NCBI GenBank assembly: GCA_965261435.1
Contig: CBDHDL010000021.1
Coordinates: forward strand, 4,379,950 to 4,443,949
Source of the DNA: Candidatus Poribacteria bacterium
GTDB taxonomy: Bacteria; Poribacteria; WGA-4E; WGA-3G
DNA: 64,000 bases
Reading direction: 5' to 3'
Under the pieces are notes generated by a model. It saw only the letters and a list, made by a program, of their open reading frames with translations, had not been told where the DNA came from and did no database searches. The position numbers and the translations under genes are program-made. Position 1 is the first letter of the stretch. Each line of letters opens with the position of its first letter. Shown here one piece after another: positions 3,629-47,747 of this stretch.

Positions 3629-3700
3629 CAGGGCGGGTAGGATTCGAACCTACGCATGCAGGTTCCAAAGACCTGTGCCTTACCGCTTGGCCACCGCCCT
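3629..3700 (-). tRNA. tRNA-Gln (anticodon UUG)
   Basis: The reverse complement folds as a cloverleaf: acceptor AGGGCGG/CCGCCCT, anticodon stem CAGGT/ACCTG with loop CTTTGGA (anticodon TTG), T-arm GTAGG-TTCGAAT-CCTAC. CCA is not encoded. Confidence 0.8.
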
Positions 3701-7856: not shown

Positions 7857-7863
7857 TCAACAG

Positions 7864-8682
7864 TTAAACTGCATCTAAAGTGGGTGTGTTGTCCTGACAA
7901 TAAACAGGTCGGAAGAGTGTCTGCCTCTTGAAGTGCATTTCTTCAACATGCATCGGATGAGGCTTCCATTTGTGCCATTTGTTACCAACGGTGTTATAGC
8001 AGTTGAAAATTGCGACACGATCATAAGTATCATCAGTCCATTTTGCACCTGTATGCGTAATCGCTTCAGTGAAAACTAACATTGAACCTGCTGGACAACT
8101 GTAATCTTCCCACAAGGGTGAAGTCCTGTCTGCTGTTGATTGTGGTGCAGGAAAAGCTCCTTTATGACTCCCGGTTAAGAACATTGTTCCTCCACCACCC
8201 TCTTTAACAGGATTGAGTTCCCAAACAACTCGAGTTAGACCACTATGTGCTCTGTCATGATGTAGGTGATAGGTATGTGAATTACCCGGAAAATTTAGCA
8301 TGCCACGACCACCGTGTGGACGGAAGTTATCGTGACCGTTTCCACGTATGGTAAGAAATGTACCCTCAAACCTAAAACCATAACAATTCTCATTAGAATA
8401 ACCCGATGTTAGGAATTCGTTCATGAAACCTAACACAACAGGATGATCTGTCAAGGATTCTAACGGACCACCGATTGAAGACCGATGATGTTCAGGAATT
8501 GTATCTGGTTCCTTCTGCAATTGATAACAGAACTCACGCATTTCTTTGGTTTCAGTTTCACTTAAGACACCTGGGAATAGAAGCCATCCGCGGGTATCAA
8601 ATAAGAAACGTTGCTCTTCCGAAAGTGGGATTGGTGGAAGATTATCAGCATTCGTCGTAGGATTTGGCATAGAATACTCCAA
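7864..8682 (-). CDS. Fe(II)/2-oxoglutarate dioxygenase, phytanoyl-CoA dioxygenase (PhyH)-like
   Basis: The 'HLHHD' H-x-D motif and overall size are similar to PhyH-family proteins, but the match is weaker than for the other two paralogs in this window. Confidence 0.45.
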   Translation of the reverse strand: MEYSMPNPTTNADNLPPIPLSEEQRFLFDTRGWLLFPGVLSETETKEMREFCYQLQKEPDTIPEHHRSSIGGPLESLTDHPVVLGFMNEFLTSGYSNENCYGFRFEGTFLTIRGNGHDNFRPHGGRGMLNFPGNSHTYHLHHDRAHSGLTRVVWELNPVKEGGGGTMFLTGSHKGAFPAPQSTADRTSPLWEDYSCPAGSMLVFTEAITHTGAKWTDDTYDRVAIFNCYNTVGNKWHKWKPHPMHVEEMHFKRQTLFRPVYCQDNTPTLDAV

Positions 8683-10334: not shown

Positions 10335-11252
10335 ATGTCAATACATAACAGCGAAAATAAAAAAACAGATCTTAATAGAGAAAGAAAAGTTAAGAACCGA
10401 AAAGAAAAAGAAGCCACTCGCGGAAAGCATTATTACGCAAATGCCAACGACTTTAGTAAGAAAAATAATCTGCTACCTGCCGAGTTTACAAATGAAATTA
10501 TCTGTGGCGATTCACAGGTCGTCCTCAAGCAACTACCAGACAATTGTATTGATCTTATTTTTACTTCACCACCCTACAATTTTGGATTGGATTACGAACA
10601 AACCGAAGATGCCTTTGCATGGGATTCCTACTTCAAGTTATTGTTCAGTATCTTTGACGAATGTATCAGAGTCCTAAAATATGGGGGACGGATAATCGTT
10701 AACGTTCAACCCTTATATTCAGACTATATCCCAACACATCATCTAATTTCACAGTACTTTATGCGTAAAAAACTGATATGGAAAGGTGAAATTTTGTGGG
10801 AAAAAAATCATTACAATTGTAAATATACTGCTTGGGGAAGTTGGAAAAGCCCGTCAAGTCCCTATTTAAAATATTCATGGGAATATTTGGAAATCTTTTG
10901 CAAAGGGTCTTTGAAAAAATCGGGTGATCCGAAAAATGCAGATATTGACGCTGATTCTTTCAAAGAGTGGGTATATGGAAAATGGACAATAGCACCTGAG
11001 CATAAGATGAAACAGTTTGGACATCCTGCTATGTTCCCTGAGGAATTAGCAGACCGAGTGCTGAAACTTTTCAGTTTCAAAGGGGATGTCATTTTAGATC
11101 CGTTTGCAGGTGTTGGAACAACCTGTCTTTCGGCACTAATGAATCAGCGTTGTTATTTGGGTATAGATATTTCACCAGAATACTGCGAAACTGCAGAAGA
11201 TAGGCTACGAATCTTGATTAGCGCACCTACATCTACAGAGTCTTGTTTGTAG
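10335..11252 (+). CDS. beta-class DNA N4-cytosine / N6-adenine methyltransferase (Type II modification methylase)
   Basis: Motif IV 'IFTSPPY' comes before motif I 'ILDPFAGVGTT' (the PF01555-type order). Lys-rich N-terminus. Confidence 0.8.
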   Translation: MSIHNSENKKTDLNRERKVKNRKEKEATRGKHYYANANDFSKKNNLLPAEFTNEIICGDSQVVLKQLPDNCIDLIFTSPPYNFGLDYEQTEDAFAWDSYFKLLFSIFDECIRVLKYGGRIIVNVQPLYSDYIPTHHLISQYFMRKKLIWKGEILWEKNHYNCKYTAWGSWKSPSSPYLKYSWEYLEIFCKGSLKKSGDPKNADIDADSFKEWVYGKWTIAPEHKMKQFGHPAMFPEELADRVLKLFSFKGDVILDPFAGVGTTCLSALMNQRCYLGIDISPEYCETAEDRLRILISAPTSTESCL

Positions 11253-11265
11253 ATAATACATCCAG

Positions 11266-12006
11266 ATGAACATCCAAATGAAACTTTTCGAAACAAACAA
11301 CAATTCAGAATATGGGTCAGTAGACAATTTGGATTATGAGTCAGTCGTAGATATCTATACAGATAGTATACATTCAATGTATACTATGACTGCAGGACAA
11401 ATTCGAGGCGCAAAAGGTGATCTTGTAGAAAATTTAGTTGATGTTATTGTCAAATTAGCATGGCATGAAATTGGCGGTGAGAAGGACCGGTTAGATATAA
11501 AAAAACACACAGGAAGAATTTCTATTGATGAAGACTATGTAGAAGCCCTAACGCCTGAATATGTTAGAGATCACATTGAACAGAATAAGGGTAAATATAT
11601 TTATAAAGTTGAACTTGATAGAGCGGTTGAGATAGACAATAAGATAATTTTAGGTATAGAATGTAAGTCCTATATAGAAAATGCAATGTTCAAAAGGACT
11701 TTAAAGGATTTTGAATTGATCGTGAAACTGCTTTATCCAGATTTGCTTTTTTGTGTGTTTCAATTTGAAAATAGTCTGGGAGGGGACTACGGAAAAGTAA
11801 GTGAACAAAGACAATTAGGAAGCGAATCAACACATACGTTACTTTCTCACACACCATCGGTAGATTTAGAAATTATAACACTTCTTGATGGTGATAGAAA
11901 ATCAGATAGGCCAATACATAAACGGGAATATTTTAAGGAACTTCCAGTGGAAAACATAGAAATTTGTGTAAATAAATTTAGGAATATACTTAAACCTTTT
12001 GTTTAG
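11266..12006 (+). CDS. putative Type II restriction endonuclease (PD-(D/E)xK-like), partner of the upstream methyltransferase
   Basis: It starts 14 bp after the MTase stop. 'KVELDRAVEIDNKIILGIECKSY' fits a D...(E)xK nuclease core. No other family signal. Confidence 0.4.
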   Translation: MNIQMKLFETNNNSEYGSVDNLDYESVVDIYTDSIHSMYTMTAGQIRGAKGDLVENLVDVIVKLAWHEIGGEKDRLDIKKHTGRISIDEDYVEALTPEYVRDHIEQNKGKYIYKVELDRAVEIDNKIILGIECKSYIENAMFKRTLKDFELIVKLLYPDLLFCVFQFENSLGGDYGKVSEQRQLGSESTHTLLSHTPSVDLEIITLLDGDRKSDRPIHKREYFKELPVENIEICVNKFRNILKPFV

Positions 12007-12011
12007 CTGAA

Positions 12012-12644
12012 AAAACTTTCCTTCCCTTCTACACCTACAACGAAAACGGTACAAACCCAAAAGAGAATATCACCGATTGGGCATTGGCAGAATTCCGAAA
12101 ACACTACGGTGATGATACCATCAGCAAGTGGGACATCTTCCACTATACCTACGGCATCCTGCACCATCCGGAATATCGGGAAAAGTATCAAGCGAACCTT
12201 AAGCGTGATCTGCCGCATATCCCGTTTGCACCAGATTTTTGGGGTTTTGCTAACGCAGGCGCACAATTAGCAGACATACACGTTAACTACGAGTCGCAAC
12301 CGAAATATGATGGTCTCAAATATATTGAAACACCAGACATGCCGATAGATTGGCGCGTTGAAAAGATGAAACTCTCTAAAGACAAAACGCAGTTGGTATA
12401 CAATGATTTCCTGACGATAGACGGTATTTCTGCGGAGGCGTTTGACTATCGACTCGGCACGCGTTCTGCGTTAGAGTGGATTGTAGATCAGTATCGCGTC
12501 AAAACGGATAAACGGAGCGGAATTGTGAACGATCCGAATCGTGCGGATCAGCCACGGTATATTGTGGATTTGATAGGGCGGGTTATCACCGTCAGTTTGC
12601 AGACGGTTGATATTGTGGGCGCATTACCAGATTTAGGTGTCTGA
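12012..12644 (+). pseudogene. C-terminal ~210 aa remnant of the Type IIG/ISP-like RM enzyme (MTase-C / target-recognition region)
   Basis: The frame opens at 11994 inside the end of the preceding gene. 'ENITDWALAEFRKHYGDDTISKWDIFHYTYGILHHPEYREKYQANLKRDLPHIPF' matches the conserved post-methylase region of PglX/MmeI/Type ISP enzymes. The middle of the ancestral gene is missing. Confidence 0.6.
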
Positions 12645-12660
12645 ATCGCGGATTTTCACA
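12383..12660 (+). repeat. direct repeat copy 1 (3' end of the Type IIG-like gene plus 13 bp past the stop)
   Basis: Read directly from the sequence: about 91% identical to 14458-14737, and near-identical over the last ~110 bp. Confidence 0.85.
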
Positions 12661-12743
12661 GATTTCGTAGGTTTTTGTTGGGTTTCGTAAACTCAACCTA
12701 TTGGTGTAAACTTAAGGAAATTAAATCCATTTTTGGATGTCTT

Positions 12744-12773
12744 CAGTCCGGTAGGGACGATATGTTTATAGAA
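12744..12773 (+). repeat. short repeat element GTAGGGACGATATGTTTATAGAAA (copy 1 of 3)
   Basis: 'cagtccggtagggacgatatgtttatagaaa'. The same ~24-nt core recurs at 50843 and 50930. It contains the small hairpin GTCC(C/G)GTAGGGAC. Confidence 0.7.
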
Positions 12774-12824
12774 AGGTTCCTTTGGTAATTTCAATTTATG
12801 TCATAAATGGTTTATTGCGAAATT

Positions 12825-14350
12825 TCATATCTTATCACACTTCGCCATGTTACATGGTCTGCATAGCAGGGTTAAATTTTCCCATTCAGTTAATCCTCCT
12901 TGAGAATAAGGTTTAATGTGATCAGACTCAAGCTGCCGAAAACCTGCCACTCCTGAGAAAACTTGATCGCAGTCTGGGCATACATATCCACCACGGTTAT
13001 GGTTTAAATTTCTGCGAAAATATGATTCCTTCCATTCTATTGGAAAATATCGACTCTGGGGATCACATGTCGGAAGATTAGGGGGTTGTGAACTCAAGAA
13101 AGATTCCTTATTTAACAATCTTTGATAAAAGAAGTTTTGCCATGTCGCATTGTGTTTTTTGTCCTCGTTTACCTCCCCAACGACCCCTCTGTTCTGGATA
13201 ACCACCTTCTGTGCTAAGCCACTTAGTTCCAGCCTGTCGAGGTGCTCGGATAAACCCACCTATTGCATCCCATGCATCATGACTCAGATTCTTAGGGTCA
13301 AGTTCCAATTCAACAGCGGAACCTATCAACAAGGCAGTTTGTTTATATTTATCAACGCTCACTCCTGACAATCCGCTTCCAAGTATTACTTCAATCCACT
13401 TAGCAAAATTTTCAAAATCCTTTTCAAGTCCATTTCCGTATGTAGGGAAAATATTTTCTTTATTTTTTGTGTCGGTAAATTGTAGCTGCGCACAAAAAGT
13501 ATCAAGTGCTTGTTCTGTAGAACCATTAAACGTCATTGCAAGATGTTTCATCGTATCGGGAGTTGAAATTAGGTTGTTCAATTTTTCTCTATGAGAGAAT
13601 GCAAGATACCACAGAAACATTGCTGACGGAGTTTGTCCTTTTGCCTGTGCTTTTCCATCCCACCAGTCAATCCAATATTGTTCGGCGGCAGGAAATTGTC
13701 CCCAAGGATTTTCAACACCCTTTTCACGAGCAGCTTGCTATCATTCGTTGAGCAGATGACGTATCTGCATAAATACCCGCGAGTCGCACAAAATAAACAG
13801 ACTTAGACTCGCTGTAATATGATAGCCTTATATCTTGGGCGGTTAGAGGTGTGCCCCCTTCGTTGATACGTCTGAATATCTCAAGTTTTGTCCCAAGATC
13901 CAGACGCGGTGGTAAGTAAATAATTGTAAGTGGATAATCATTAAAAACTGTTTTAAATTTCTCGGGAAGCTCCGAGAACTTTTTCCCACTATAGTGGACA
14001 CTTTGTGGCGAAAGATAGTTGATGTCATCATCTGCGTCTAAACTAAATTCATCGTTTTCAAATTTCCGAATTGTATTCAAACGTTGCTGTCCATCAATGA
14101 CTTCAATTTTACGACTCTCTTGATCTTCTAAAAAAAAGAGGGCAGGCGTTGTCAGATTATTCAATAACGATTCAATAAATAGAGATTCTTTCCGCTGATC
14201 CCACTGTTCTGCATCACGCTGGTAATCGGGAATGATAATTCGTTTATTCTTTACACGACTATAATTGTTTCTACATTCTCGCTTTGCGTTCGAGTCGCGT
14301 CGCTAACGATTGGGGCAATGTTTTCAACGTTTAAACTCTCTGTGCTCATA
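12825..14350 (-). pseudogene. GmrSD-like Type IV restriction endonuclease (DUF262 + HNH/DUF1524), broken into at least 3 frames
   Basis: The ATG at 14350 gives MSTESLNVENIAP...VV* and then shifts frame to 'KRIIIPDYQRDAEQWDQRKESLFIESLLNN...DGQQRLNTIRKFE' (DUF262 motifs). A middle piece spans 13108-13620. The C-terminal piece 12825-13259 carries the HNH motif 'DHIKPYSQGGLTEWENLTLLCRPCN'. A TTGACA-18-TATTAT promoter lies at 14381-14410 on the minus strand. Confidence 0.65.
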
Positions 14351-14380
14351 ATCCTCTCCATTATATAAATTTCTCTTTAT

Positions 14381-14410
14381 ATAATACTATCTCTGGTTAT
14401 CGTGTGTCAA
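14381..14410 (-). promoter_or_regulatory. sigma70-like promoter (TTGACA-18 nt-TATTAT) for the GmrSD-like gene
   Basis: Minus-strand reading: ttgacacacgataaccagagatagtattat. RBS ggagagg precedes the ATG at 14350. Confidence 0.5.
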
Positions 14411-14424
14411 TCAAAAAGTTGGAA

Positions 14425-14445
14425 CTACTTTTTATTGATATAGTG
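14425..14445 (+). repeat. 21-bp direct repeat ACTAyTTTTTATTGATATAGT (right copy)
   Basis: See left copy. This copy lies 12 bp before the duplicated IIG 3' end. Confidence 0.75.
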
Positions 14446-14457
14446 CAAATTATCTAA

Positions 14458-14737
14458 AGACAAAACGCAGTTGGTATACAACGATTTTCTGACAATAGCA
14501 GGTATTCCAGCGGAGGTGTTTACCTATCGGCTTGGCACGCGTTCTGCGTTAGAGTGGATTGTAGATCAGTATCGCGTCAAAATGGATAAACGCAGCGGTA
14601 TTGTGAACGATCCGAACCGCGCAGATCAGCCGCGGTATATTGTGGATTTGATAGGGCGGGTTATCACCGTCAGTTTGCAGACGGTTGATATTGTGGGCGC
14701 ATTACCAGATTTAGATGTCTGAATCTCGGATTAGGCG
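14458..14737 (+). repeat. direct repeat copy 2: a second, diverged copy of the last ~88 codons of the Type IIG-like gene, plus stop and 13 bp
   Basis: ORF 14471-14722 'MVYNDFLTIAGIPAEVFTYRLGTRSALEWIVDQYRVKMDKRSGIVNDPNRADQPRYIVDLIGRVITVSLQTVDIVGALPDLDV' matches the end of 12084-12644 with several substitutions. Confidence 0.85.
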
Positions 14738-16027: not shown

Positions 16028-16270
16028 TTCAACCCAATAGACACGGTAGGTGCGGTTTCCTAACCGCACCGGATTCCACAAGAAACTGAAAATTACCCGA
16101 TTAAATTTTTAAACTTCATATTTGATTGAGAAGTTGGAATAATTCAATCTAATAATGCTTTGTCAAGTCATAAATGATTTGTATATCGGGCGGGGAAACC
16201 CCGCCCCTACGAACAGATCTACTCATCATTTGAGTGTAGACAGAACATTAGGATGGAATTTACCGGATGA

Positions 16271-17542
16271 TTACCATGTTCCATGCACAGGTGTTTCCAA
16301 TGCCTTCTCATATAGGTCTGACCATTCTTTTGTACCATCATCAAAAGTAAGTTCAAGCCGTGCTCCTGCAACATACGCCTCGCCGTTTCCAGCATTAAAA
16401 TAACTCAATCCATCACCAGCCATGTGGATACAACTGCCATCTGGATAAACTGCAGTTTTTATTATTCTCGGATGTGGGTGAATTGTGTATCCATCATCAT
16501 CCAATTCTTCTGATGGCACTCTATATTTTTCAATAGCATTCTCATCTAATTCAACACCTAAGCCAGGGACATCAGGTACAGAATGACAACCTTCTGTTAC
16601 TAGAATCGGTTCTGTCAGTAGATGATCACTGTAGAGATTTATGCAGGTAATTGCAGGCCAAGTTGCATGTGTCAGGACACTACCAAGGTGTGCTGCCCAA
16701 GTTGTCGTCAAACCGTTCCCAACTATCTGCAACCAGAACGGCATATCAGCTGCAGCACTGAGGTATCCATCATACATCGTCCGAGATTTACCGCCTCCAA
16801 TGACAAATCCATCACAGGCACCTTCACGAATAACAGTCGTATATGGCGGTGATCCGAAGTGCATTGCTATTGGACAGTCAACAACACTACGTATTGCATT
16901 ATTTCCTTCTACATCACCCTGGGGTATAGGAGATTCAAAAATTGCTACATTCGGGTGTGCGGCAAGTTTTTTCAATACTGGTATGGCAGTATCAGCATCG
17001 CGCAATGAACTGTTAGGATCCAAATCCAGTTTGAAGTCAGATGGAACAACTTCTGCCACTGCGTCTACCTGTTCAACAATATCCCACCATGGACGCGGTT
17101 TATTCTTAAAACTCGTATAGCCGTTCTCAACAGCCTCAGCAGCTTCTGCTGCCCAATTTTCCGGAGAAGAATCAATACTCCACCAAGAAATTGGTACATC
17201 ATCACGACACTTGTTCCCAAGAATTTGGTAAACGGGTACTTCCATGATCTTTCCAACAACATCAAAGAGTGCCATTTGCAAACCAGCACCCAAAGAATCA
17301 TCATTCATGAGTTCGGCAGGACTTTCTCCGAGAACGCGATTCACGCTGTTTTCTGACACGCGACTATAGGTATAATGAATTACAGTCTCACCCCAACCGA
17401 TATGTCCAGTATCTGTTGTAACCTTACACAATTCAAGTAGAGACCAGTTGTAAACTGTTGAGACACTTTGAGTCGTGATTTCTTGTTGACGCGGTGTAAA
17501 TGGAACATCAACTAAAGTACGTTCAATATTAGTAACTTTCAT
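16271..17542 (-). CDS. enolase-superfamily enzyme (MR/MLE family), extended 423-aa form
   Basis: N-terminal capping domain, a 'FKNK' KxK motif and a barrel-domain acidic triad pattern. Confidence 0.65.
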   Translation of the reverse strand: MKVTNIERTLVDVPFTPRQQEITTQSVSTVYNWSLLELCKVTTDTGHIGWGETVIHYTYSRVSENSVNRVLGESPAELMNDDSLGAGLQMALFDVVGKIMEVPVYQILGNKCRDDVPISWWSIDSSPENWAAEAAEAVENGYTSFKNKPRPWWDIVEQVDAVAEVVPSDFKLDLDPNSSLRDADTAIPVLKKLAAHPNVAIFESPIPQGDVEGNNAIRSVVDCPIAMHFGSPPYTTVIREGACDGFVIGGGKSRTMYDGYLSAAADMPFWLQIVGNGLTTTWAAHLGSVLTHATWPAITCINLYSDHLLTEPILVTEGCHSVPDVPGLGVELDENAIEKYRVPSEELDDDGYTIHPHPRIIKTAVYPDGSCIHMAGDGLSYFNAGNGEAYVAGARLELTFDDGTKEWSDLYEKALETPVHGTW

Positions 17543-31905: not shown

Positions 31906-33165
31906 ATGGATTCAGATGAGATTATCTCAAATGTGAATACCGCTTCACATCCATCAGAACTGAAAATTACCGACATGCGAATTGTCAGAACGCAGGTGGG
32001 TGGACCTATCCTTAGATTGGACACAAATCAGGATATACATGGTCTTGGAGAAGTGCGTGATGGGGGAAGTCCAACCTACGCTCTGATGCTGAAAAGTCGC
32101 ATCATCGGTGAAAATCCGTGCAATGTTGACAAAATATTTCGTAAGATAAAACAGTTCGGACACCACGCGAGACAAGGGGGAGGTGTCTGTGGAATCGAAA
32201 TGGCGCTAATGGATTTAGCAGGAAAAGCCTATGGTGTTCCATGTTACCAACTTGCAGGTGGAAAATTCAGAGACAAAATAAGATGTTATAGTGATACTCC
32301 TTCTTTAAAAGATGCAGAACAAATGGGGAAAAAACTCCAGGAACGCATTGACAAAGGATTCACATTTTTGAAAATGGATGTAGGTATTGGACTACTTAGC
32401 GGTATCCCGGGGACACTATCAGCACCTGAAGGAAACCTAAGTTCACATAATCTTAAGCATCCTTTTACAGGTATCAGACTGACAGAAAAAGGCATCAACA
32501 TTCTCTGTGAATATGTAGAAACTGTCAGAGAAATAATTGGATATGAAGTACCGCTTGCTGTGGATCATTTCGGTCATATCGGAATTGAAGATTGTATCCG
32601 ACTTGCAAGGTCATTGGAAAAATACAATCTTGCTTGGTTAGAGGATATGGTGCCGTGGCAATATACAGATCAATATGTACGTCTTTCAAACTCCTGTGCC
32701 ACCCCAATCTGTACAGGAGAGGATATCTACTGCAAAGAGGATTTTTTACCACTGTTTGAAAATAGAGCTATCGCAATTTGTCATCCTGATATAGCAACCT
32801 CGGGGGGCATACTGGAAACAAAGAAGATTGGTGATCTTGCGGAAGAACACGGTATTGCAATGGCACTACACATGGCAGGAACACCTGTATGTGCAATGGC
32901 AAGTGTTCATTGTGCTGCAGCAACATCTAATTTTATGGTCTTAGAAAATCATTCTGTAGACAATCCATGGTGGGATGAAATGGTGACCGGATTACCAAAT
33001 CCTATTATCCAAGATGGATACATTGAAGTACCTGAAACACCCGGATTAGGAATTGAACTCAACGAAGAAATAATCAAAGCACATCTTCATTCGGATGAAG
33101 AAGGTTATTTCTTGCCTACAACAGAATGGGATAACGAACGTTCACATGATAGGTTGTGGAGTTAG
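31906..33165 (+). CDS. enolase-superfamily enzyme (MR/MLE family)
   Basis: Capping domain 'LKITDMRIVRTQVGGPILRLDTNQDIHGLGE'. The barrel has 'FLKMDVG', 'LAVDHFG', 'WLEDMV' and 'CTGED'. Its stop (TAG 33163-33165) overlaps the stop of the convergent cassette gene. Confidence 0.75.
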   Translation: MDSDEIISNVNTASHPSELKITDMRIVRTQVGGPILRLDTNQDIHGLGEVRDGGSPTYALMLKSRIIGENPCNVDKIFRKIKQFGHHARQGGGVCGIEMALMDLAGKAYGVPCYQLAGGKFRDKIRCYSDTPSLKDAEQMGKKLQERIDKGFTFLKMDVGIGLLSGIPGTLSAPEGNLSSHNLKHPFTGIRLTEKGINILCEYVETVREIIGYEVPLAVDHFGHIGIEDCIRLARSLEKYNLAWLEDMVPWQYTDQYVRLSNSCATPICTGEDIYCKEDFLPLFENRAIAICHPDIATSGGILETKKIGDLAEEHGIAMALHMAGTPVCAMASVHCAAATSNFMVLENHSVDNPWWDEMVTGLPNPIIQDGYIEVPETPGLGIELNEEIIKAHLHSDEEGYFLPTTEWDNERSHDRLWS

Positions 33166-33734
33166 GTTAGGCCCCTCGCTTTTAGCAGGACATTTGCTAA
33201 ATTTCTTTCATCATTACATTTGCTTTTACTAATGACATATTCACTACCATTAAATCTAATTTTTTCATGCATTAGTTTCCTATATTGTGATTTGTGAGTA
33301 CCACTACCGTGGAATAGAACAGGCACACAAGTTATAATGATCTTTGCTGGAACAACACTTTTCGCGTAATCAGCGCCGCCACGTAGTTGATCTGCCACAT
33401 CTTTTGCGCTTTTAAAAGTACCACCTTTGTTTTCGATTAAAACTATAACAAGTTGATCGCTGTTCGGACAGATGTAAAAGAGTATTTTGTCACAATGTTT
33501 CCCAGTACTTCCACGTGCATTAAAAGCAAGATCAACATCCACTACTACACGCTCAATTGGTAGTCCACTCATGTCAACACTACATTTATTGCTACTGCAG
33601 GAAGATGTTAGATTTTCTTCACCTACCCTCCTTCGTATTTCATTGAGAGTTTCACTCATTTTTATTTTCTGCGTCCTCATTAAGGAATTGCCGTTCAAGA
33701 TCAACGAAAGTATTATATAAGTGATCAGCAACAT
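33162..33734 (-). CDS. small protein with a PD-(D/E)xK-like nuclease motif; putative effector of cassette 1
   Basis: 'RVVVDVDLAF...CDKILFYICPNSDQLVIVLIENKGG' is a D...ExK core. Its start overlaps the ATPase 3' end by ~80 bp. Its paralog at 35325-35873 has the same architecture. Confidence 0.45.
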   Translation of the reverse strand: MLLITYIILSLILNGNSLMRTQKIKMSETLNEIRRRVGEENLTSSCSSNKCSVDMSGLPIERVVVDVDLAFNARGSTGKHCDKILFYICPNSDQLVIVLIENKGGTFKSAKDVADQLRGGADYAKSVVPAKIIITCVPVLFHGSGTHKSQYRKLMHEKIRFNGSEYVISKSKCNDERNLANVLLKARGLT

Positions 33735-35121
33735 CTTCGTAATCTTTCGGCTCTATACCTTCAATGCGATCAAAAGGTATCTCTTCTACAGGTTTATTAG
33801 ATTGAAACCACCATACACCTACTTCTTCTTTTTGCAATTTGTATGGTATTGCACCCGATTCACCATTGTGTTCTTTCAGTTCACCTTCACGAATTAGATT
33901 GGCGATTTGCTGAAGAAGCCAATCGCTATGCGTTGTTATTATCACACGAACTCCAGCTCGGACCAATCGCGCAAGTGCAACAGCAACCTGTGTTTGTGCC
34001 CTTGGATGCAGATGCGCTTCAGGTTCTTCAATGATGAGTGTATCACCAGGATTAACTAAACTTCGAAGGAATATTACTAAGGGGGTAAGTTCTGATACCA
34101 TTGAGGATGTCCTATTCATCTGTATTGCTTGTTTTGAGTGTTTTGGACAGAAAATGAACTGTGGATATCCGACACCAGCATGTCTGTTTACCATTATTTC
34201 CCCTTGCAAGACCTCGTTTTCGAGTATTTTTGATATTTCAGTTATTTCACTTGAAGACCGTTCACGATCATTGTAATTGATGATATGTTTGAGAAAATCC
34301 GCGATCACGCCAGTAAGCATGGAAATTTCTTGTGAGTGTGCCAATCCAGAACGAGTCGCACGATCCACAAGGCCACTTGTTATTACGCCATGTGTTTCCA
34401 TAATTCCACCTTGAATAGAAGGTAGAAAAAATGTATGGTGTCTTGGCAATTCCGACATTGAAATGCCTAATCGTGAAACTAATTCCAATATATCTGCTTC
34501 ATCTTTTGACTTGTCATTATTGCAGTAAGTAAAGACCATATCTTCGTTAATTTTCTTATTCGTAATGATACCAGACGCAGAACTATAACAATTTATAGAC
34601 CACAGAAATTGGCTCTCATCACTAATTCTTACCTCAAAATTCATCTCATCTTCAGAATTATTCGTGAATCTTCTCAATTCTTCTATGAATTCAAGGTCAA
34701 AACACCTTTTGAGTTCGGTTTCAATCACTTTCGAATTTTCCATATCATCTTTCAACAGTTTCTTAACTATCTGAGGTAAATCTGAAAACTTGAATGTTCT
34801 TCCTATAGTATAGAGTTTGTGAAATGCATCATGAATTTCTTTTTTCACACTGTTTGGATTTGGTACGGATTGATCCTGACCGATGTATTTGGATTCAAAA
34901 CTATGTGGAGTAAAGGGTATCCAAGGAATTCTTGAAAATCCCTCAAATGTCTGTTGTAATGCATAGATTAGAGTAGCAAGATATGTCTTACCAGTATTGC
35001 TTTCACCGACAAACACCGTCAGTGGACGCAAATCTATCTCTGCCTTCTCAATTGGTCCAAAGTTCTCTACTGCTATGTTGATGTTTAGGGGTTTTTGCGC
35101 TATCTCTTCGTGCATTGGCAA
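33652..35121 (-). CDS. ABC-type (AAA_15/AAA_21-like, OLD/PtuA/AriA-like) ATPase of cassette 1
   Basis: Walker A 'VFVGESNTGKTYL'; Q-loop region; 'SSMVSELTPL' signature-like; Walker B/D-loop 'TLIIEEPEAHLHPRAQ'; H-loop 'IITTHSDW'. 489 aa. Confidence 0.75.
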   Translation of the reverse strand: MPMHEEIAQKPLNINIAVENFGPIEKAEIDLRPLTVFVGESNTGKTYLATLIYALQQTFEGFSRIPWIPFTPHSFESKYIGQDQSVPNPNSVKKEIHDAFHKLYTIGRTFKFSDLPQIVKKLLKDDMENSKVIETELKRCFDLEFIEELRRFTNNSEDEMNFEVRISDESQFLWSINCYSSASGIITNKKINEDMVFTYCNNDKSKDEADILELVSRLGISMSELPRHHTFFLPSIQGGIMETHGVITSGLVDRATRSGLAHSQEISMLTGVIADFLKHIINYNDRERSSSEITEISKILENEVLQGEIMVNRHAGVGYPQFIFCPKHSKQAIQMNRTSSMVSELTPLVIFLRSLVNPGDTLIIEEPEAHLHPRAQTQVAVALARLVRAGVRVIITTHSDWLLQQIANLIREGELKEHNGESGAIPYKLQKEEVGVWWFQSNKPVEEIPFDRIEGIEPKDYEDVADHLYNTFVDLERQFLNEDAENKNE

Positions 35122-35147
35122 TTCTCCTTTTCAACGTGTATGTAGAC

Positions 35148-35181
35148 TCTATTATACACGAAAAAAAGGGTAACTGCAAGG
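35148..35181 (-). promoter_or_regulatory. near-consensus sigma70 promoter (TTGCAG-17-TATAAT) driving cassette 1
   Basis: Minus-strand reading: cttgcagttaccctttttttcgtgtataatagag, ~30 bp upstream of the ATPase ATG. Conserved at 37308-37341. Confidence 0.6.
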
Positions 35182-35217
35182 TATGAGAATAGGGAATCAC
35201 CAACATGCGTGTTGGCC

Positions 35218-35328
35218 AAACTCAACGAAGAAGTAATCAAAGCACATCTTCACTCGGATGAAGATGGTTATTTCTTGCCTACAACAGATTGGGATTATGA
35301 ACGTTCACATGATAGGTTGTGGAGTTAA
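35218..35328 (+). repeat. ~108-bp diverged copy (~95% identity) of the 3' end of the enolase-superfamily gene (33058-33165)
   Basis: 'ctcaacgaagaagtaatcaaagcacatcttcactcggatgaagatggttatttcttgcctacaacagattgggattatgaacgttcacatgataggttgtggagttaa' versus 33058-33165. The stop overlap with the cassette-2 small gene is the same as at the 33162-33165 junction. Confidence 0.85.
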
Positions 35329-35873
35329 CTTAATAGTTTCTTCTGTAGTATCTTAGATAATTTTCCCCCGCAGCGGGCAGTAATAATTTCAGACGAGATA
35401 CCTTGAAAACTTATTTGTGATTTGATTTTTCTTAGATGTCTTATTTCGGCTCTACTTAAATGATTGTGATACAATATGGGAATGAAAATTGTTTTGATTC
35501 CTGATGAAACAAAACTTGCTGCATAAGCCGCTCCACTTTTTAATTGCATGACAGCCTTATCTGCCTCGGCATTCTTTCCACCTTTGAGTTCTATTGCTAC
35601 AACAACTAGTCTTTCGGATGAATCAAAATAAAAAATAATGCATTCACATTGACTCTTGCTTTGTTGTCCATGTGGAAATACTTTATCTAAATCTACTACA
35701 ACCCGTTCATTTTCTGATACTCCTGTCAAACCTACACTACAATTCCCTCTTTTGAATGAATTTTTTAAAAACAAGCTCTCTTTACCGATCTGTCCTCTTA
35801 TATTCTCTAATACCTCACTCTTGTTCACTCGTGTTAGCTCCTGCATTTTCTCTGAGTGAGGAACGAAGGTCAA
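35325..35873 (-). CDS. small protein with a PD-(D/E)xK-like nuclease motif; putative effector of cassette 2
   Basis: 'RVVVDLDKVF...CECIIFYFDSSERLVVVAIELKGGKN'. Likely true start at the internal Met (MQELTRVNK...). Overlaps the ATPase 3' end. Confidence 0.45.
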   Translation of the reverse strand: MTFVPHSEKMQELTRVNKSEVLENIRGQIGKESLFLKNSFKRGNCSVGLTGVSENERVVVDLDKVFPHGQQSKSQCECIIFYFDSSERLVVVAIELKGGKNAEADKAVMQLKSGAAYAASFVSSGIKTIFIPILYHNHLSRAEIRHLRKIKSQISFQGISSEIITARCGGKLSKILQKKLLS

Positions 35874-37278
35874 CAGAATGATTGTAGAGATCCTCTGCTA
35901 CATTTCCATAGTCAGGTGGTTCTATTCCATTAACAAGATCAAATTTAATCTCCTCTACAGGTTTGTCAGCATGAAACCACCATGCACCAACTTCTTCAGC
36001 AGTCAAATAAGTCGATGAATCTTGTTGTTTCTGCTCCATTCTCATCAATTCACCCTCGCGAACTAAATTACTAATTTGTTCAAGAAACCAATCACTATGT
36101 GTTGTAATTATAACACGAACTCCAGCTCGGACCAATCTCGAAAGTGCAATGGCAACCTGGGTTTGGGCTCTCGGATGCAGATGTGCTTCAGGTTCTTCAA
36201 TGATCAGTGTATCTCCGCATTTTACATATCTTCGCAGATACAAGACTAAAGGAGTAAGTTCTGATACCATTGAAGAGCATTGACTCATTCGAAGTGCAAT
36301 TTCTGATTGTTTTGGATAGTAGAGATACTCAGGATAACTAACTCCAGCAGGCTTGTTTATTTCAATTCTTCCTTGCAAGACTTCGGTTTCAAGGTATTTA
36401 GCAATGAAATCTATCTTATCTGATAAACCTCTAACTTCGTTATAATTGACGATCTGATTCAGAAAATCTACAATCATTCCCGAAAAAGTTGGTATTTCAG
36501 GGTAAAGTTCAAGTCCGACTTTAGTTGTCCGATTGTAGAGAGCCATAGTAATAATACCATGACTTTGCATGATACCACTTCGCGCAGCAGGTAGGTAGTG
36601 TGAACTTTTTTCTTCTCTTCTGTCTATTCGAAATATTCTTCTAAATTCGTCAAAATCAAGCGGCTCATGTCTACTTTTTCTGTTATCAGTATTAATAACC
36701 ATATCTCCGTTAATCAAACCGTATGCTGTGCTACCTGTCCCATTGTTCTGCATATCAAATGACCATAGAGTTTGGTTAACGTCACTAATATTTAGTGAGA
36801 AACTTAAAACATTGTTTGAGTCTCTTGCTGACCGAATTATCTCTGAAATTGTTTCTAAATCGTAATAGAGTCTAAGTTTCTCTTCAATAGAATCAGTTCT
36901 ATTAAGATCGGATTCCAACATAGTACGCACGCGCTCAGGTAAATCTGAGAATTTGAAGGGACGTCCATGAGTGTTTAATTTCTCAAGAATCTCAAAAATT
37001 TCTCTATCAAGTTTTTCCTGGTTTGATACTTTCCGAGCAACTGGACGGTAAGTAAAAGCTATATTTGATTGTAAACGGTGTGACGATGGAAATTGTGTGA
37101 AACCATCAAAACTTTTATGCAATGAATGAATTAGAGTAGCAAGATATGTCTTACCAGTATTGCTTTCACCGACAAACACCGTCAGTGGACGCAGATCTAT
37201 ATCTGCCTTCTCAATCGGTCCGAAGTTTTCAACTGATATGTTGATTTTAAGGGGTTTTTGATCTTTCTCTTCGTGCAC
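35815..37278 (-). CDS. ABC-type (AAA_15/AAA_21-like) ATPase of cassette 2; paralog of 33652-35121
   Basis: Same motifs ('VFVGESNTGKTYL', 'TLIIEEPEAHLHPRAQ', 'IITTHSDW'). N- and C-terminal thirds are ~90% identical at nucleotide level to cassette 1; the middle is diverged. Confidence 0.75.
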   Translation of the reverse strand: MHEEKDQKPLKINISVENFGPIEKADIDLRPLTVFVGESNTGKTYLATLIHSLHKSFDGFTQFPSSHRLQSNIAFTYRPVARKVSNQEKLDREIFEILEKLNTHGRPFKFSDLPERVRTMLESDLNRTDSIEEKLRLYYDLETISEIIRSARDSNNVLSFSLNISDVNQTLWSFDMQNNGTGSTAYGLINGDMVINTDNRKSRHEPLDFDEFRRIFRIDRREEKSSHYLPAARSGIMQSHGIITMALYNRTTKVGLELYPEIPTFSGMIVDFLNQIVNYNEVRGLSDKIDFIAKYLETEVLQGRIEINKPAGVSYPEYLYYPKQSEIALRMSQCSSMVSELTPLVLYLRRYVKCGDTLIIEEPEAHLHPRAQTQVAIALSRLVRAGVRVIITTHSDWFLEQISNLVREGELMRMEQKQQDSSTYLTAEEVGAWWFHADKPVEEIKFDLVNGIEPPDYGNVAEDLYNHSVDLRSSLRENAGANTSEQE

Positions 37279-37307
37279 TGCTAATCCTCCTTTACAAGGT
37301 GGAAGTA

Positions 37308-37341
37308 GATTCTATTATACACGAAAAATAGGGTAACTGCA
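37308..37341 (-). promoter_or_regulatory. near-consensus sigma70 promoter (TTGCAG-17-TATAAT) driving cassette 2
   Basis: 'ccttgcagttaccctatttttcgtgtataatagaatc' on the minus strand; paralogous to 35148-35181. Confidence 0.6.
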
Positions 37342-37359
37342 AGGTATGAGAATAGGAAA

Positions 37360-38328
37360 TTATATCAACGAAACAATCCTTTGATATAGATGTGGAACAG
37401 TGACAGAAAAGTCACCGGAAATATGATAACTTTCTCCACCATCCTTTACTGTTCGTATAAGGATAGTTTTCTTTGGTCGGTGATAGTAATGTGCATCAGT
37501 AGGATTCCCTTCATCCTGAAAATCTGGAAAATCTATGAGATCAAAATTCGCTGTTGTAAATTTTCGTATCTCTTCACCATCCTGTGCTGCAATGTTCCGT
37601 GCCATAGATAAACTCTTCAAATAAACTTCAGGTCCCATTACTGCAGAACCCAAATTAAGAAAGACACCACCTTCTAACTTTGAAATAGTCTCCGCGAAAA
37701 TCAGGAAGTCTCTGCCTGATGTCCAACCGATTGCAGCAAAATCTGCTGCAGGATGCTGATCAGTAATGTCAAATCCAATACCCTTATGGACAGTAATAGG
37801 TACTCCTAAACGATAGGCTGCAGCAAATATGCTCACTTCAAGATGAGGAAATTGAATTTTACTTTCTTGATTCTGTATGAGTCGTCCAATAGCATGACCA
37901 TAACCAATTTTGTCTTGGTGACCTCTAATTATTGCCTCATTCAAATACCTTCCTGTCTCTTCCCAGTTACCGAATTTCCCATCACGTATATAAACTTCAA
38001 CATCTTCAAGCGTTGCCCCTATATGTGCCATCTCAAAATCGTGTATCGCACATGCACCATTTGTTGCAATGTGGGTAATCATACCACGTTTCATTAGATC
38101 AATTATAAAGCGTGAATTACCACGACGCATCACATGTGCACCCATCATCCAAACAACCTGTTTTCTGTTCTGATAGGCTTTGACAATACATTCAGCGACG
38201 ATGTTGAGTCGTTCATTTTCATAACGTGGAATGTCACCATCTAACGCATAGATGTGTTCCACAGTCATCTTGTGTTTACGTTGCGATAGCGGTAGAATTG
38301 TAAGGTGAGAACGATCCAAGTAAGACAT
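37360..38328 (-). CDS. hypothetical protein, possibly deoxyhypusine-synthase-like (DHS-like NAD-binding fold)
   Basis: 'VWMMGAHVMRRGNSRFIIDLMKRGMITHIATNGACAIHDFE' is loosely reminiscent of DHS-family motifs. Weak assignment. Confidence 0.3.
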   Translation of the reverse strand: MSYLDRSHLTILPLSQRKHKMTVEHIYALDGDIPRYENERLNIVAECIVKAYQNRKQVVWMMGAHVMRRGNSRFIIDLMKRGMITHIATNGACAIHDFEMAHIGATLEDVEVYIRDGKFGNWEETGRYLNEAIIRGHQDKIGYGHAIGRLIQNQESKIQFPHLEVSIFAAAYRLGVPITVHKGIGFDITDQHPAADFAAIGWTSGRDFLIFAETISKLEGGVFLNLGSAVMGPEVYLKSLSMARNIAAQDGEEIRKFTTANFDLIDFPDFQDEGNPTDAHYYHRPKKTILIRTVKDGGESYHISGDFSVTVPHLYQRIVSLI

Positions 38329-44834: not shown

Positions 44835-44954
44835 TTCCTTTCTGTTGGATTTCATCGCATTCTTGTGAATTGAGGGAATGATTCATCGCTTATGTTCCTA
44901 CTGAGGGCACCTACCTGACTGCATCTAAGTCTGTATTGTACATATACCAGTTTC

Positions 44955-47747
44955 ATGTTGACTTATATTTTGAGGTATACAGTGAAAAAAGCAACATATT
45001 TTCTGCTAATTCAAGTACTCGTCTTTGTATTCTCTTTATCCATTACATTTGGAGAAGATCCATCAAATTGGCATTTACCTGACGGTACAATAGCACGTCT
45101 TGGTAAAGGTAACATCAATAAAATCCAATATTCTCCAGACGGTAAAATCTTGGCTGCGGCAACAGATATAGGAATCTGGTTATATGAAACAGATACATAT
45201 AAAGAAATTGCTTTGCTCGGTGCCCATACTGAAAGTATTAAGACTATAGATTTTAGTGCTGATGGCAGTATACTTGCTTATGATAGTTCTACAAAGGTTG
45301 TATTATGGGATATGGTGAAGCAATCCCAAAAATCAGTCATAGAAGTTTCTAATGATAGGGATGAACTCTGTGTGGCAATTAGTCCTGATGGAAAAACAAT
45401 TGCGTGTGGATCTTATTATGGGACGACAAATCTATATGATGTAGATACAGGTATAATGAAAGCAACATATAGCAGCGAACATAATGTTACGGGTGTAGAT
45501 TTCAGTCCTGATGGTCAATTTCTACTCATAGAAGACACTGACAGTTTAAGAAGTAAATCAATTAGTTTACGCAACGTTTTGACAGGTAAAGAAATCCACA
45601 GTATAAACGTGTCTGATGATGATGTAAACGGTGTTGCGTTTAGTCCGGATGGAAAACTTATTGCATCCACAGGTGAGAAAAAAGATCAACTCTTATTGTG
45701 GAATGCAGAACATGCTTCAGACGATGAACAGAAAAAGATAGTATATTGTTACACATCGTACAGCTTGACATTTAGTCCGGATAGTAAAATGCTTGCTATT
45801 GGACAGTTAGGTGAAGTTTCACTCATTGATCCGAATACTGGCAAACGAATCGGATTCCACACTCCAAATACTGAAGAAGTCATCAGTGTTGCATTTAGTC
45901 CAGATGGCAAAACGCTTGCAAGTGCCACCGACCATCAAATCTATTTATGGGATATTGTCAGGGCACAACCGATAGCTACTTTTAACTCTGAAAGTGATAA
46001 GAATGTAAAAAGTATAGCAATTAGTCCTGATGGCAGTATTATTGCAAGCGGCGGATTTGACGACAGTTTAACACTATGGGATGCTGTAACCAGAGTTAAG
46101 AAGAACAAATTTGAATTTGAAACAGGTGCTGTCAATAATATTGCATTCTCACCAAACGGCAATACAGTTGCAGTTGCAACAAAAGGGGTTGTGCATTTAT
46201 TGGATAGACCTACAGGACAGATGAACCCCTTACGACTTCCACATTTAGGTAGAATTTTTAGTTTGATGTATAGTCCGGATGGGAAAACTCTTGCTTGTAG
46301 TGGTCACAACGGTTTAGTAATCATAATTGATGTTGCTACAGGTAAACAGAGGATGACATTGCGGGGACATGATGATAACGTCAATAGAGTAGTATTTAAT
46401 CCAGAAGGCACTCTACTTGCATCTGGCGGAGACGATGAAAAAGTCATTCTGTGGGACGCTATGACTGGAGAAAAACTACACGTGCACACTGCTTATGATT
46501 CTGAAGTCTGGAGTCTAACATTCAGTCCTGATGGAAACACGATTGCAGTTGGTGGAAGAAGTTATAAAATCGGTCTTTTGGATGTCAAAACGCATGAATA
46601 TTCTAAGATTTCAGACAGAATATCCTCAATAACAGACATGTCATATAGCTCCGATGGAAAAAGTTTAGTAACTTCAAGCATGCGTGGATTACACTTGTGG
46701 GATATGGAAAAAGGAAGGACGATAGCAGCATTTATCGGACACGAAGGCACTGTTACATGTGCAAGATTTAATCCTATAGACGGATCAATCGTCAGTGGAG
46801 GGGTAGATGGAACAGTACGTATGTGGAACAGCATAGGTGGAGGATTCAGAGACATTGCAATAGGTTTCATTGAAGATGTCTCAAGTGTTGCCTACCATCC
46901 AGATGGAAAAACTTTCGCAACGACCGGCGGAAAACATGCTGTAAGACTATGGGATTCAACAACCAATCAACTAAAATCTGTATTTGGATGGGAATGGGCA
47001 CCACAAACAATCGCTTTTAGTCCTAACGGCAATCAGATAGCAACTGCTGGATTGTCAGACGAGGTTAGATTATGGGATGCAAATACAGGAGAACAACTTG
47101 CTGTATTTAAAGAACATACAAAGGCTATTGAAAGTCTTGATTTTAGTCCTGATGGAAAAACTATCGTAAGTGGTGATCGAGATGGATTGGTTGTGATTTG
47201 GGATTTAACCAAGAATGAACAACTCCATATCTTTAAGGGACATCAGAGAGGAAACCGCATTAACTTCTATGAATGGGTAAATGGTGTAGCATTTACTCCT
47301 GATGGACAAAAACTTGCTACTGCAAGTCATGAAGTAATCTTGCTGTGGAACACCACTGATAGAGAATACATAGAAATCAAAGCGGAAAAACCTGGAAATC
47401 AATGTATTGACATCCACCCTTATGGAAGTCTACTTGCTGTTGGCCACTATGATGGAGTCTTTTTGTGGCATGCGACAACTGGCAAGAAAATTGCAAAATT
47501 AGAAGGACACAGCGGCACGGTAATTTCTGTTGCTTTTAGTCCTGATGCAAGATTCCTTGCCAGTGGTGGAGGGGGTTCTGACAATAAGATAATCCTATGG
47601 GATATCACAACGACTCAGGAAATCACTAAATTGTCTGGACATACAGACGGCGTCAGATCTGTTGCATTCAATCCGGATGGTAACACGCTCGTAAGTGGCA
47701 GTTGGGATGGAACAGCACTTATATGGGATATTTCTAAATACAGGTAG
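44955..47747 (+). CDS. WD40/beta-propeller repeat protein (930 aa, ~20 repeats), secreted or membrane-anchored
   Basis: N-terminal hydrophobic segment. Iterated '(A)FSPDGKTLAS...LWD' WD-repeat units throughout. Confidence 0.8.
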   Translation: MLTYILRYTVKKATYFLLIQVLVFVFSLSITFGEDPSNWHLPDGTIARLGKGNINKIQYSPDGKILAAATDIGIWLYETDTYKEIALLGAHTESIKTIDFSADGSILAYDSSTKVVLWDMVKQSQKSVIEVSNDRDELCVAISPDGKTIACGSYYGTTNLYDVDTGIMKATYSSEHNVTGVDFSPDGQFLLIEDTDSLRSKSISLRNVLTGKEIHSINVSDDDVNGVAFSPDGKLIASTGEKKDQLLLWNAEHASDDEQKKIVYCYTSYSLTFSPDSKMLAIGQLGEVSLIDPNTGKRIGFHTPNTEEVISVAFSPDGKTLASATDHQIYLWDIVRAQPIATFNSESDKNVKSIAISPDGSIIASGGFDDSLTLWDAVTRVKKNKFEFETGAVNNIAFSPNGNTVAVATKGVVHLLDRPTGQMNPLRLPHLGRIFSLMYSPDGKTLACSGHNGLVIIIDVATGKQRMTLRGHDDNVNRVVFNPEGTLLASGGDDEKVILWDAMTGEKLHVHTAYDSEVWSLTFSPDGNTIAVGGRSYKIGLLDVKTHEYSKISDRISSITDMSYSSDGKSLVTSSMRGLHLWDMEKGRTIAAFIGHEGTVTCARFNPIDGSIVSGGVDGTVRMWNSIGGGFRDIAIGFIEDVSSVAYHPDGKTFATTGGKHAVRLWDSTTNQLKSVFGWEWAPQTIAFSPNGNQIATAGLSDEVRLWDANTGEQLAVFKEHTKAIESLDFSPDGKTIVSGDRDGLVVIWDLTKNEQLHIFKGHQRGNRINFYEWVNGVAFTPDGQKLATASHEVILLWNTTDREYIEIKAEKPGNQCIDIHPYGSLLAVGHYDGVFLWHATTGKKIAKLEGHSGTVISVAFSPDARFLASGGGGSDNKIILWDITTTQEITKLSGHTDGVRSVAFNPDGNTLVSGSWDGTALIWDISKYR

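Follow-up and report, generated by a model that had tools for sequence, protein, structure and literature searches.

The window analysed here is a stretch of 64,000 nucleotides (nt) from a Candidatus Poribacteria genome (contig CBDHDL010000021.1; coordinates count from the first base of the window), in which an enolase-superfamily gene is followed by two consecutive two-gene cassettes, each consisting of an AAA_15 ATPase and a small predicted nuclease. When the cassettes were compared with each other and with the corresponding locus in related genomes, the arrangement was best explained, with a probability of about 0.6, as two allelic units of one locus that were joined by general recombination. 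A 109-bp copy of the enolase gene end and a 21-nt junction (J) between the units would be the scar of that joining.

The enolase-superfamily (MR_MLE) gene (31906-33165, + strand; Pfam MR_MLE_C 1e-51, and MR_MLE_N) has orthologues in the relatives and is the conserved left anchor of the locus. Its functional final 109 bp and stop (E3'a; 33056-33165, + strand) recur after cassette 1 as an orphan copy (E3'b; 35219-35328, + strand), which is non-coding at its site because no reading frame lies upstream. An earlier note, made from the sequence alone, had described this copy as about 95 % identical over the last 108 bp of the gene, and the similarity stood up to careful alignment: positions 33056-33164 and 35219-35327 agree at 103 of 109 bases (94.5 %) with no gaps, and the repeat was recovered by BLASTN within the window with an E-value of 2e-45. 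The enolase stop (TAG, 33163-33165) overlaps the stop of the cassette 1 small gene (TTA on the + strand, 33162-33164). E3'b ends in TAA (35326-35328), and the cassette 2 small gene has its own stop at 35325-35327, so that the two overlap with the identical 2-base offset. The matching overlaps and the order gene end, cassette 1, gene-end copy, cassette 2 had both been described correctly. A third copy of the gene end was not found in the window by BLASTN, including after cassette 2, and the direct repeats flank cassette 1 only. Since there are two gene-end copies rather than three, at most one joining event is recorded, and the iterated integration that had been proposed is not borne out.

The gene-end repeat forms the left edge of a longer structure, a complete duplication of 2163-bp register whose units follow each other head to tail; each unit consists of the enolase 3' end, the small gene, the AAA_15 ATPase and the promoter. 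In the first unit, the small gene (33162-33677), the ATPase (33652-35115) and the promoter with the right end of the unit (35151-35197) all lie on the - strand; the same holds for the second unit (small gene 35325-35828, ATPase 35815-37278, promoter region 37279-37359), whose promoter region abuts the stop codon of the next gene. The resemblance between the units is uneven. The small genes share about 50 % nucleotide and 35 % amino acid identity, and the ATPases share about 50 % nucleotide identity outside the conserved blocks and 51 % amino acid identity overall. One conserved ATPase block (about 33890-34040) reaches roughly 85-90 % in its core. The conserved stretch that codes for Walker B and the H-loop (LIIEEPEAHLHP...ITTHSDW), termed patch X (33916-34016, - strand; cassette 2 partner, 36085-36185), is about 85-90 % identical, only slightly more alike between the units than between any two species. 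The region of the ATPase N-terminus and promoter (34925-35197 versus 37088-37360) is 86 % identical, with about 60 nt at 100 %, which is well above the between-species level; its N-terminal coding part is 15-20 % diverged between the units. Junction J (CACCAACATGCGTGTTGGCCA; 35198-35218) lies between unit 1 and the gene-end copy and is presumably an illegitimate join. It carries the palindrome CCAACA/TGTTGG and, with up to three mismatches allowed, has no second occurrence in the window.

When assemblies of the same species were sought, there was no exact-protein match for the enolase, the cassette 2 ATPase, the downstream gene or either small protein, and the enolase protein had no match above 91 % amino acid identity in genomes and metagenomes. 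The close relatives of the window were found instead by following homologues of two sequences, the small protein and the sensor part of the ATPase, and are referred to by our locus numbers L161, L162 and L163. Switch points were read from the sliding identity of these three loci against both cassettes, together with a protein alignment. L161, a metagenome scaffold of 14 kb that matches the window at about 88 % identity, shares both flanks with it and has one cassette. The part of L161 that begins at the enolase gene and includes the small gene and the ATPase C-terminus resembles cassette 1 (about 90 %), up to about 34016; from about 36185 on, its sequence, including the promoter and the downstream gene, resembles cassette 2 (88-90 %). 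L161 thus corresponds to the window with exactly one unit removed and the switch lying in patch X, and places the crossover inside the ATPase gene, not at the core that had been proposed for it at the stop codon. L163 is the reciprocal chimera, with a nuclease module of the cassette 2 type (T2) about 92 % identical to cassette 2 and a sensor part about 85 % identical to cassette 1. The closest relative, L162 (about 92-98 % identical), is cassette-1-like up to patch X and then carries a third type of sensor part. Because the switches of all three loci fall in patch X, recombination has recurred at the Walker-B patch, which divides the ATPase sensor part from a module made of the ATPase C-terminus and the nuclease.

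The gene-end copy was also compared with the enolase genes of other species. E3'b shows seven differences from the functional end, as many as L162 and fewer than L161, and it shares lineage-specific residues with the enolase gene of the window; other species are 69-86 % identical. As E3'b is closer to the lineage of the window than other species are, it derives from that lineage or a near relative, though the adjoining cassette interiors are ancient alleles (35 % and 51 % amino acid identity). The seven differences are mostly private to E3'b and mostly non-synonymous, as is expected because the fragment has no reading frame. A perfect 8-bp hairpin with T-rich tails on both strands (CATCTTCA...TGAAGATG) was observed in the copy at 35245-35266 (counterpart, 33082-33101), where one private substitution mends a mismatch that the functional copy has. 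A terminator role was considered for it and dropped, because terminator-like sites in the scan were as many as in shuffled sequences and because the palindrome stems from His-Leu-His codons and occurs in empty-site species too.

According to the explanation that we favour, the cassette is present in the clade as old allelic types, namely two types of nuclease (T1 as in cassette 1, T2 as in cassette 2) and several of the ATPase sensor part. These alleles are shuffled by homologous recombination at the enolase end, at patch X and at the ATPase N-terminus with the promoter. The donor would have been the same locus of a closely related strain; the incoming DNA would have brought its own enolase 3' end because it came from that locus. 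The joining itself would have combined a single homologous crossover, located in either the enolase gene or patch X, with a single illegitimate join at J. Two variants agree with the data. In the first, homology-facilitated illegitimate recombination of a linear fragment would have displaced the resident unit, with its gene end, downstream. In the second, a circularised L163-like unit would have entered an L161-like chromosome by a single crossover in patch X (co-integration), which reproduces the window exactly. The 2163-bp register, the unique junction and a recombinant relative that is shorter by one unit are the marks of a tandem built by recombination, and all three were observed.

Several points weigh against this explanation. 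No donor allele with the sequence of J was found, and the illegitimate join is deduced from a single junction; the similarity of J to the right flank of L163 is not significant (p = 0.16). The close relatives number only three, two of them on short contigs. When assemblies of the same species were sought, there was no exact-protein match for the enolase, the cassette 2 ATPase, the downstream gene or either small protein, and the enolase protein had no match above 91 % amino acid identity in genomes and metagenomes. We infer a gain in the window, but L161 could be the collapse of an older tandem. The same order of T1 and then T2 in a distant lineage (see below) hints at an ancestral tandem; if so, gene conversion or some later event would be needed to account for a gene-end copy that looks young. 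The gene-end copies (94.5 %) are more similar than the promoter and N-terminal blocks (86 %), a difference that is not cleanly predicted by any single-step model. In addition, homology among cassette 1, cassette 2 and L163 ends at the same nucleotide after GAGAATAGG. This shared breakpoint could mean a discrete mobile unit; in our view it reflects the near lack of spare DNA between the genes.

Another feature is the 8-mer TCAACGAA, which occurs on the + strand at 33059, 33701, 35222 and 37365, whereas 1.3 occurrences per strand are expected in the whole window. Its local over-representation is left unexplained by general recombination between alleles. The copy at 37365-37372 lies in the downstream gene (37360-38328, - strand), the right flank of the array, which codes for 322 amino acids, has no Pfam match above threshold and is shared with L161 only. 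The motif CAACGAA, which had been placed within 37342-37362, in fact lies at 37366-37372, in the last codons of that gene.

The 8-mer is one reason to consider a tandem duplication in situ, from 33056 to the promoter end, by microhomology slippage or template switching, possibly between the TCAACGAA copies at 33059 and 37365 and followed by piecemeal allele replacement of the interiors. We regard this as possible but rather unlikely. The 8-mer stands at the start of the repeat and again 5 nt past the end of the array, J holds a palindrome that can fold back, as is typical of template-switch junctions, the cassette 2 small gene's tail and E3'b are together similar to the left end of the L161 T1 allele, and module replacement at patch X is demonstrably frequent. 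However, at least three events are required. Near-identical promoter blocks are predicted, and those observed are 86 % identical, with the N-terminal coding part more divergent still; the right-hand site of L161 has CTAACGAA instead of TCAACGAA; and the junction contains about 18 extra nt, which is beyond a simple microhomology join.

When the locus was followed through the Candidatus Poribacteria, enolase orthologues were found in about 50 loci from as many species (86-91 % amino acid identity), with the upstream synteny conserved in about 20 species. A cassette directly follows the enolase gene in 12 species, and it is missing in others that have the same downstream genes (L032 versus L003, L007, L029 and L048; L014 and L010 versus L016; L002 versus L005). 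The states observed after the enolase gene among the about 50 species are empty, single T1, single T2 and T1+T2. The comparison with related genomes that the earlier note had called for thus revealed empty, single- and double-cassette loci, and the arrangement is not invariant. A conserved flank with variable occupancy and no mobility genes is what characterizes core-gene-flanked defence hotspots. The small genes fall into the two old types, each about 60-65 % identical in amino acid sequence to its counterparts in other species, and their distribution departs from the enolase tree; for example, the sister species L003 and L007 differ in type.

The boundaries of the cassette vary among these loci. 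The junction was read in 10 single-cassette species, and in 7 of them a gap of 3-12 nt separates the enolase stop from the end of the small gene, which does not agree with a fixed core at the stop codon. Overlapping stops are found in only some species, and the spacing to the stop codon ranges from -4 to +12 nt. A second gene-end copy was not found at any of the enolase-anchored Poribacteria loci L001-L049. In a different clade the cassette is either situated within a variable region (L027, L028) or linked to a right-hand LamG-LamG-TPP block apart from the enolase gene (L164, L169). No gene-end copy was observed at L027 or L028, or at L164, which was judged from its gene map only. The claim that the incoming element carries its own target end is therefore half right: the extra DNA in the window does hold a diverged gene-end copy, but an inherent presence of one in the cassette is not supported, as it is lacking at these sites and in the tandems of L166, L167 and L168. 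The variable genes downstream of the enolase gene in the other clade were also considered as a possible defence island, and this was rejected, as, judged by sequence alone, most of them look like proteins of LRR/TPR type and not like defence genes.

One cassette indel was particularly clean. Relative to its sister L010 (11264-11294), L016 (11264-13391) has a 2.1-kb cassette directly after the enolase stop, with GAATAT at both ends; a similar GAAC occurs once in L010. It could be a microhomology deletion or a target duplication.

The lineage of L166, L167 and L168 has a T1+T2 tandem of its own, with T1 proximal and T2 distal as in the window. Its two ATPases are 92-97 % identical to each other over aligned stretches. 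The spacers contain no gene-end remnant, as Smith-Waterman scores were no better than those of shuffled sequences. In L166 and L168 a 199-nt deletion in the spacer (compared to L167) removes the -35 region of the proximal cassette promoter, and the proximal ATPase of L166 is additionally split by a frameshift; thus one cassette of the tandem is decaying. In L168, an ORF similar to IS605 OrfB (7256-8065 in locus coordinates) lies within the M14 peptidase gene next to the enolase gene, and this gene is intact in the co-sampled L167.

This second lineage raises an alternative in which T1+T2, with the gene-end copy, is an ancient tandem homogenised by gene conversion and the single-cassette species are collapses. 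The shared order of T1 and T2 agrees with it, as do the similarity of each type across species, which fits long parallel inheritance, the strongly homogenised ATPases of the other tandem lineage and the resemblance of L161 to a one-unit collapse. Nevertheless we consider it unlikely. There is no gene-end trace in the spacers of L166, L167 and L168, conversion would have had to rescue a non-functional 109-bp fragment repeatedly, and the changes in the copy, which are private and for the most part non-synonymous, have the look of recent decay.

Mobility genes were sought by a Pfam scan of every open reading frame (ORF) of at least 150 amino acids in the window, excepting an obvious SMC gene of 1200 amino acids. 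In agreement with the earlier note, no integrase or transposase was found in the 64 kb, and the same scan revealed no TnpB and no tyrosine or serine recombinase. An integron attC-like site or IntI was also not found; there is only the 6-bp palindrome in J, and the cassette has its own conserved -35 and -10 boxes, unlike a promoterless integron cassette. With regard to transposons, no transposase, TnpB or terminal structure was seen in the window, and the IS605 OrfB-like ORF of L168 is not at a cassette border. No relevant Rfam family was present between 30 and 40 kb, and no relatives were found on viral contigs. A tRNA as the integration target was discarded, as the sole tRNA (3629-3700) lies far off.

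Site-specific integration would involve a circular cassette whose attP mimics the enolase 3' end and a recombinase from elsewhere, or an activity of the cassette's own proteins. It could account for the 109-bp target-end direct repeats around cassette 1, which are as in islands that restore a target 3' end, for the sharp cassette ends in several contexts and for the clean L016/L010 indel with its GAATAT direct repeat. We concluded, however, that such integration at a fixed core is disfavoured, because a recombinase is absent, because the same att boundaries do not recur in independent occurrences (L001-L049, the L166-L168 spacer and the varying stop-to-stop distance) and because L161 differs by a crossover inside the ATPase gene, away from the repeat. 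The independent cassettes and the other tandem without a gene-end copy, the variable stop-codon spacing, the linkage of the other clade's cassette to the LamG/TPP block and the missing relatives on viral contigs also speak against it, and its probability is very low. Equally improbable is a related idea, that the cassette is a discrete integrase-free mobile unit, extending from just past the -35 box to the stop codon, which circularises and re-inserts by the enolase gene or elsewhere through its own ATPase-nuclease pair or a distant host factor. If this were true, the 109-bp copy and J would be the product of a genuine attachment site, and its footprints would be the breakpoints that coincide after GAGAATAGG in three contexts, together with the L016 GAATAT repeat.

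The double cassette might also have arisen in the assembly, if T1 and T2 strain haplotypes of a mixed population had been stitched in tandem. Both allele types do co-occur in related populations, and no second assembly of the species was found. On the other hand, a unique 21-nt sequence and a sharp break amid a conserved gene are not made by haplotype merging, natural tandems exist in other genomes, and the source contig of 4.83 Mb suggests a long-read assembly, whose reads would span the 4.3-kb array. An artefact is thus extremely unlikely, and the joining of two alleles by general recombination is retained as the preferred explanation.

The genes of the cassette point to a role in defence. 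Both ATPases match AAA_15 (Pfam, 1e-27 for cassette 1 and 2e-23 for cassette 2) and the PADLOC profile PD-T4-4_A (1e-40 and 4e-37, respectively); the cassette 1 ATPase also matches PDC-M47A (3.5e-32) and AriA (5e-30). Walker A (GESNTGKT), Walker B (LIIEEPE) and the H-loop (THS) were seen in the alignment. The start of the cassette 1 ATPase was read from the sequence as the ATG at 35115, after an AAGGAG Shine-Dalgarno motif (the longest ORF begins at 35121). The adjoining partner in both cassettes is the small protein with a predicted PD-(D/E)xK nuclease fold. Among 34 small-protein homologues, about 24 matched the PDC-M47B profile weakly (best E-value 9e-5), and each of three PD-T4-4_B profiles was matched by one homologue with a marginal E-value of about 0.003-0.005. 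From this homology we infer that the cassette is an anti-phage pair of ATPase and small nuclease resembling PD-T4-4, WonAB and PDC-M47.

Each cassette has a promoter of its own. In cassette 1 the -10 box (TATAAT, 35156-35151) is separated by a 17-nt spacer from the -35 box (TTGCAG, 35179-35174), and in cassette 2 the boxes are at 37319-37314 and 37342-37337, respectively. In most of 16 aligned cassettes these hexamers are conserved upstream of the ATPase, and similarity ends 10-20 nt past the -35 box.

Other differences from L161 and other gene remnants were noted in the remainder of the window. A 98-nt element (window, 16153-16250; L161, reverse complement, 7632-7729) is 95 % identical in the two sequences and stands in different places, in L161 upstream of the SMC gene, where the window has none; it may be a small dispersed repeat. 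A WD40-repeat gene of 930 amino acids (44955-47747) is absent from the orthologous position in L161, where only about 100 nt of L161 stand between the aligned positions 44868 and 47754; this indel involves a repeat protein of eukaryote-like type. Two further MR_MLE paralogues (6702-7856 and 16271-17542, both - strand) lie amid many sugar-acid and oxidoreductase genes. A decayed restriction/defence cluster was found at 10335-14722, with apparent pseudogene remnants parted by non-coding stretches: an N6_N4 DNA methylase (10335-11252), C-terminal fragments of a Type ISP enzyme (12084-12644 and 14471-14722), an HNH ORF (12825-13259, - strand) and an N-terminal fragment of GmrSD (13724-14164, - strand).

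The locus provides a natural example of an anti-phage locus that would diversify without mobile-element machinery. Old nuclease-NTPase alleles would be retained, re-assorted at the Walker-B patch and occasionally stacked, and the stub of the neighbouring gene would be a datable scar of the stacking. The reciprocal chimeras suggest which parts of the proteins must co-evolve and hint at how the ATPase docks the nuclease.

When compared with known systems, the locus is best supported as a PD-T4-4/WonAB-like pair that occupies a hotspot flanked by core genes and was stacked by recombination, which left a displacement-type scar; each of these kinds is already known. PD-T4-4, WonAB and the 'OLD-ABC ATPase + novel REase' are nuclease-NTPase anti-phage systems (Vassallo 2022; PMC12137116; bioRxiv 10.1101/2025.07.10.664194), and PDC-M47 is a PADLOC candidate. 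The cassettes share with PD-T4-4, WonAB and PDC-M47 the two-gene operon, in which an ABC/AAA_15 ATPase is followed by an overlapping small gene for a PD-(D/E)xK-fold nuclease. They differ in that the nuclease is only marginally related by sequence and that the host is an uncultivated sponge symbiont. The core defence hotspots (cDHS) of Pseudomonas aeruginosa are flanked by conserved genes (PMC10250203). As in these, the position is fixed by core genes, occupancy is empty or one or two systems, and mobility genes are absent; here, however, there is essentially one system family in many allelic forms, and exchange also takes place inside the ATPase gene. Integrase islands that restore gene 3' ends (at tRNA or tmRNA att sites) and integron cassettes are similar in the target 3'-end direct repeats around cassette 1, but the locus has no integrase, conserved core or attC-like site, its boundaries are not reproduced and the cassette brings its own promoter.

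The closest parallel for the joining is found in displacement arrays formed by homology-facilitated illegitimate recombination, such as the 'C-terminal displacement' of Rhs and contact-dependent inhibition (CDI) toxins and the sequentially displaced effector-immunity modules of Vibrio cholerae's type VI secretion system (T6SS) (PMC5361080). In those arrays, as would be the case here, homology within a conserved gene anchors the incoming allelic DNA, the other end is illegitimate, no recombinase takes part, and the resident module is moved downstream while it keeps a stub of the conserved gene in front. The stub in the window, however, comes from an unrelated convergent housekeeping gene and not from the toxin gene itself. 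Moreover, the displaced module is a complete, self-promoted and probably still functional defence operon, and a single step is recorded. No new recombination system is revealed, and the displacement-array logic of Rhs and T6SS toxin loci would be extended to a defence locus.

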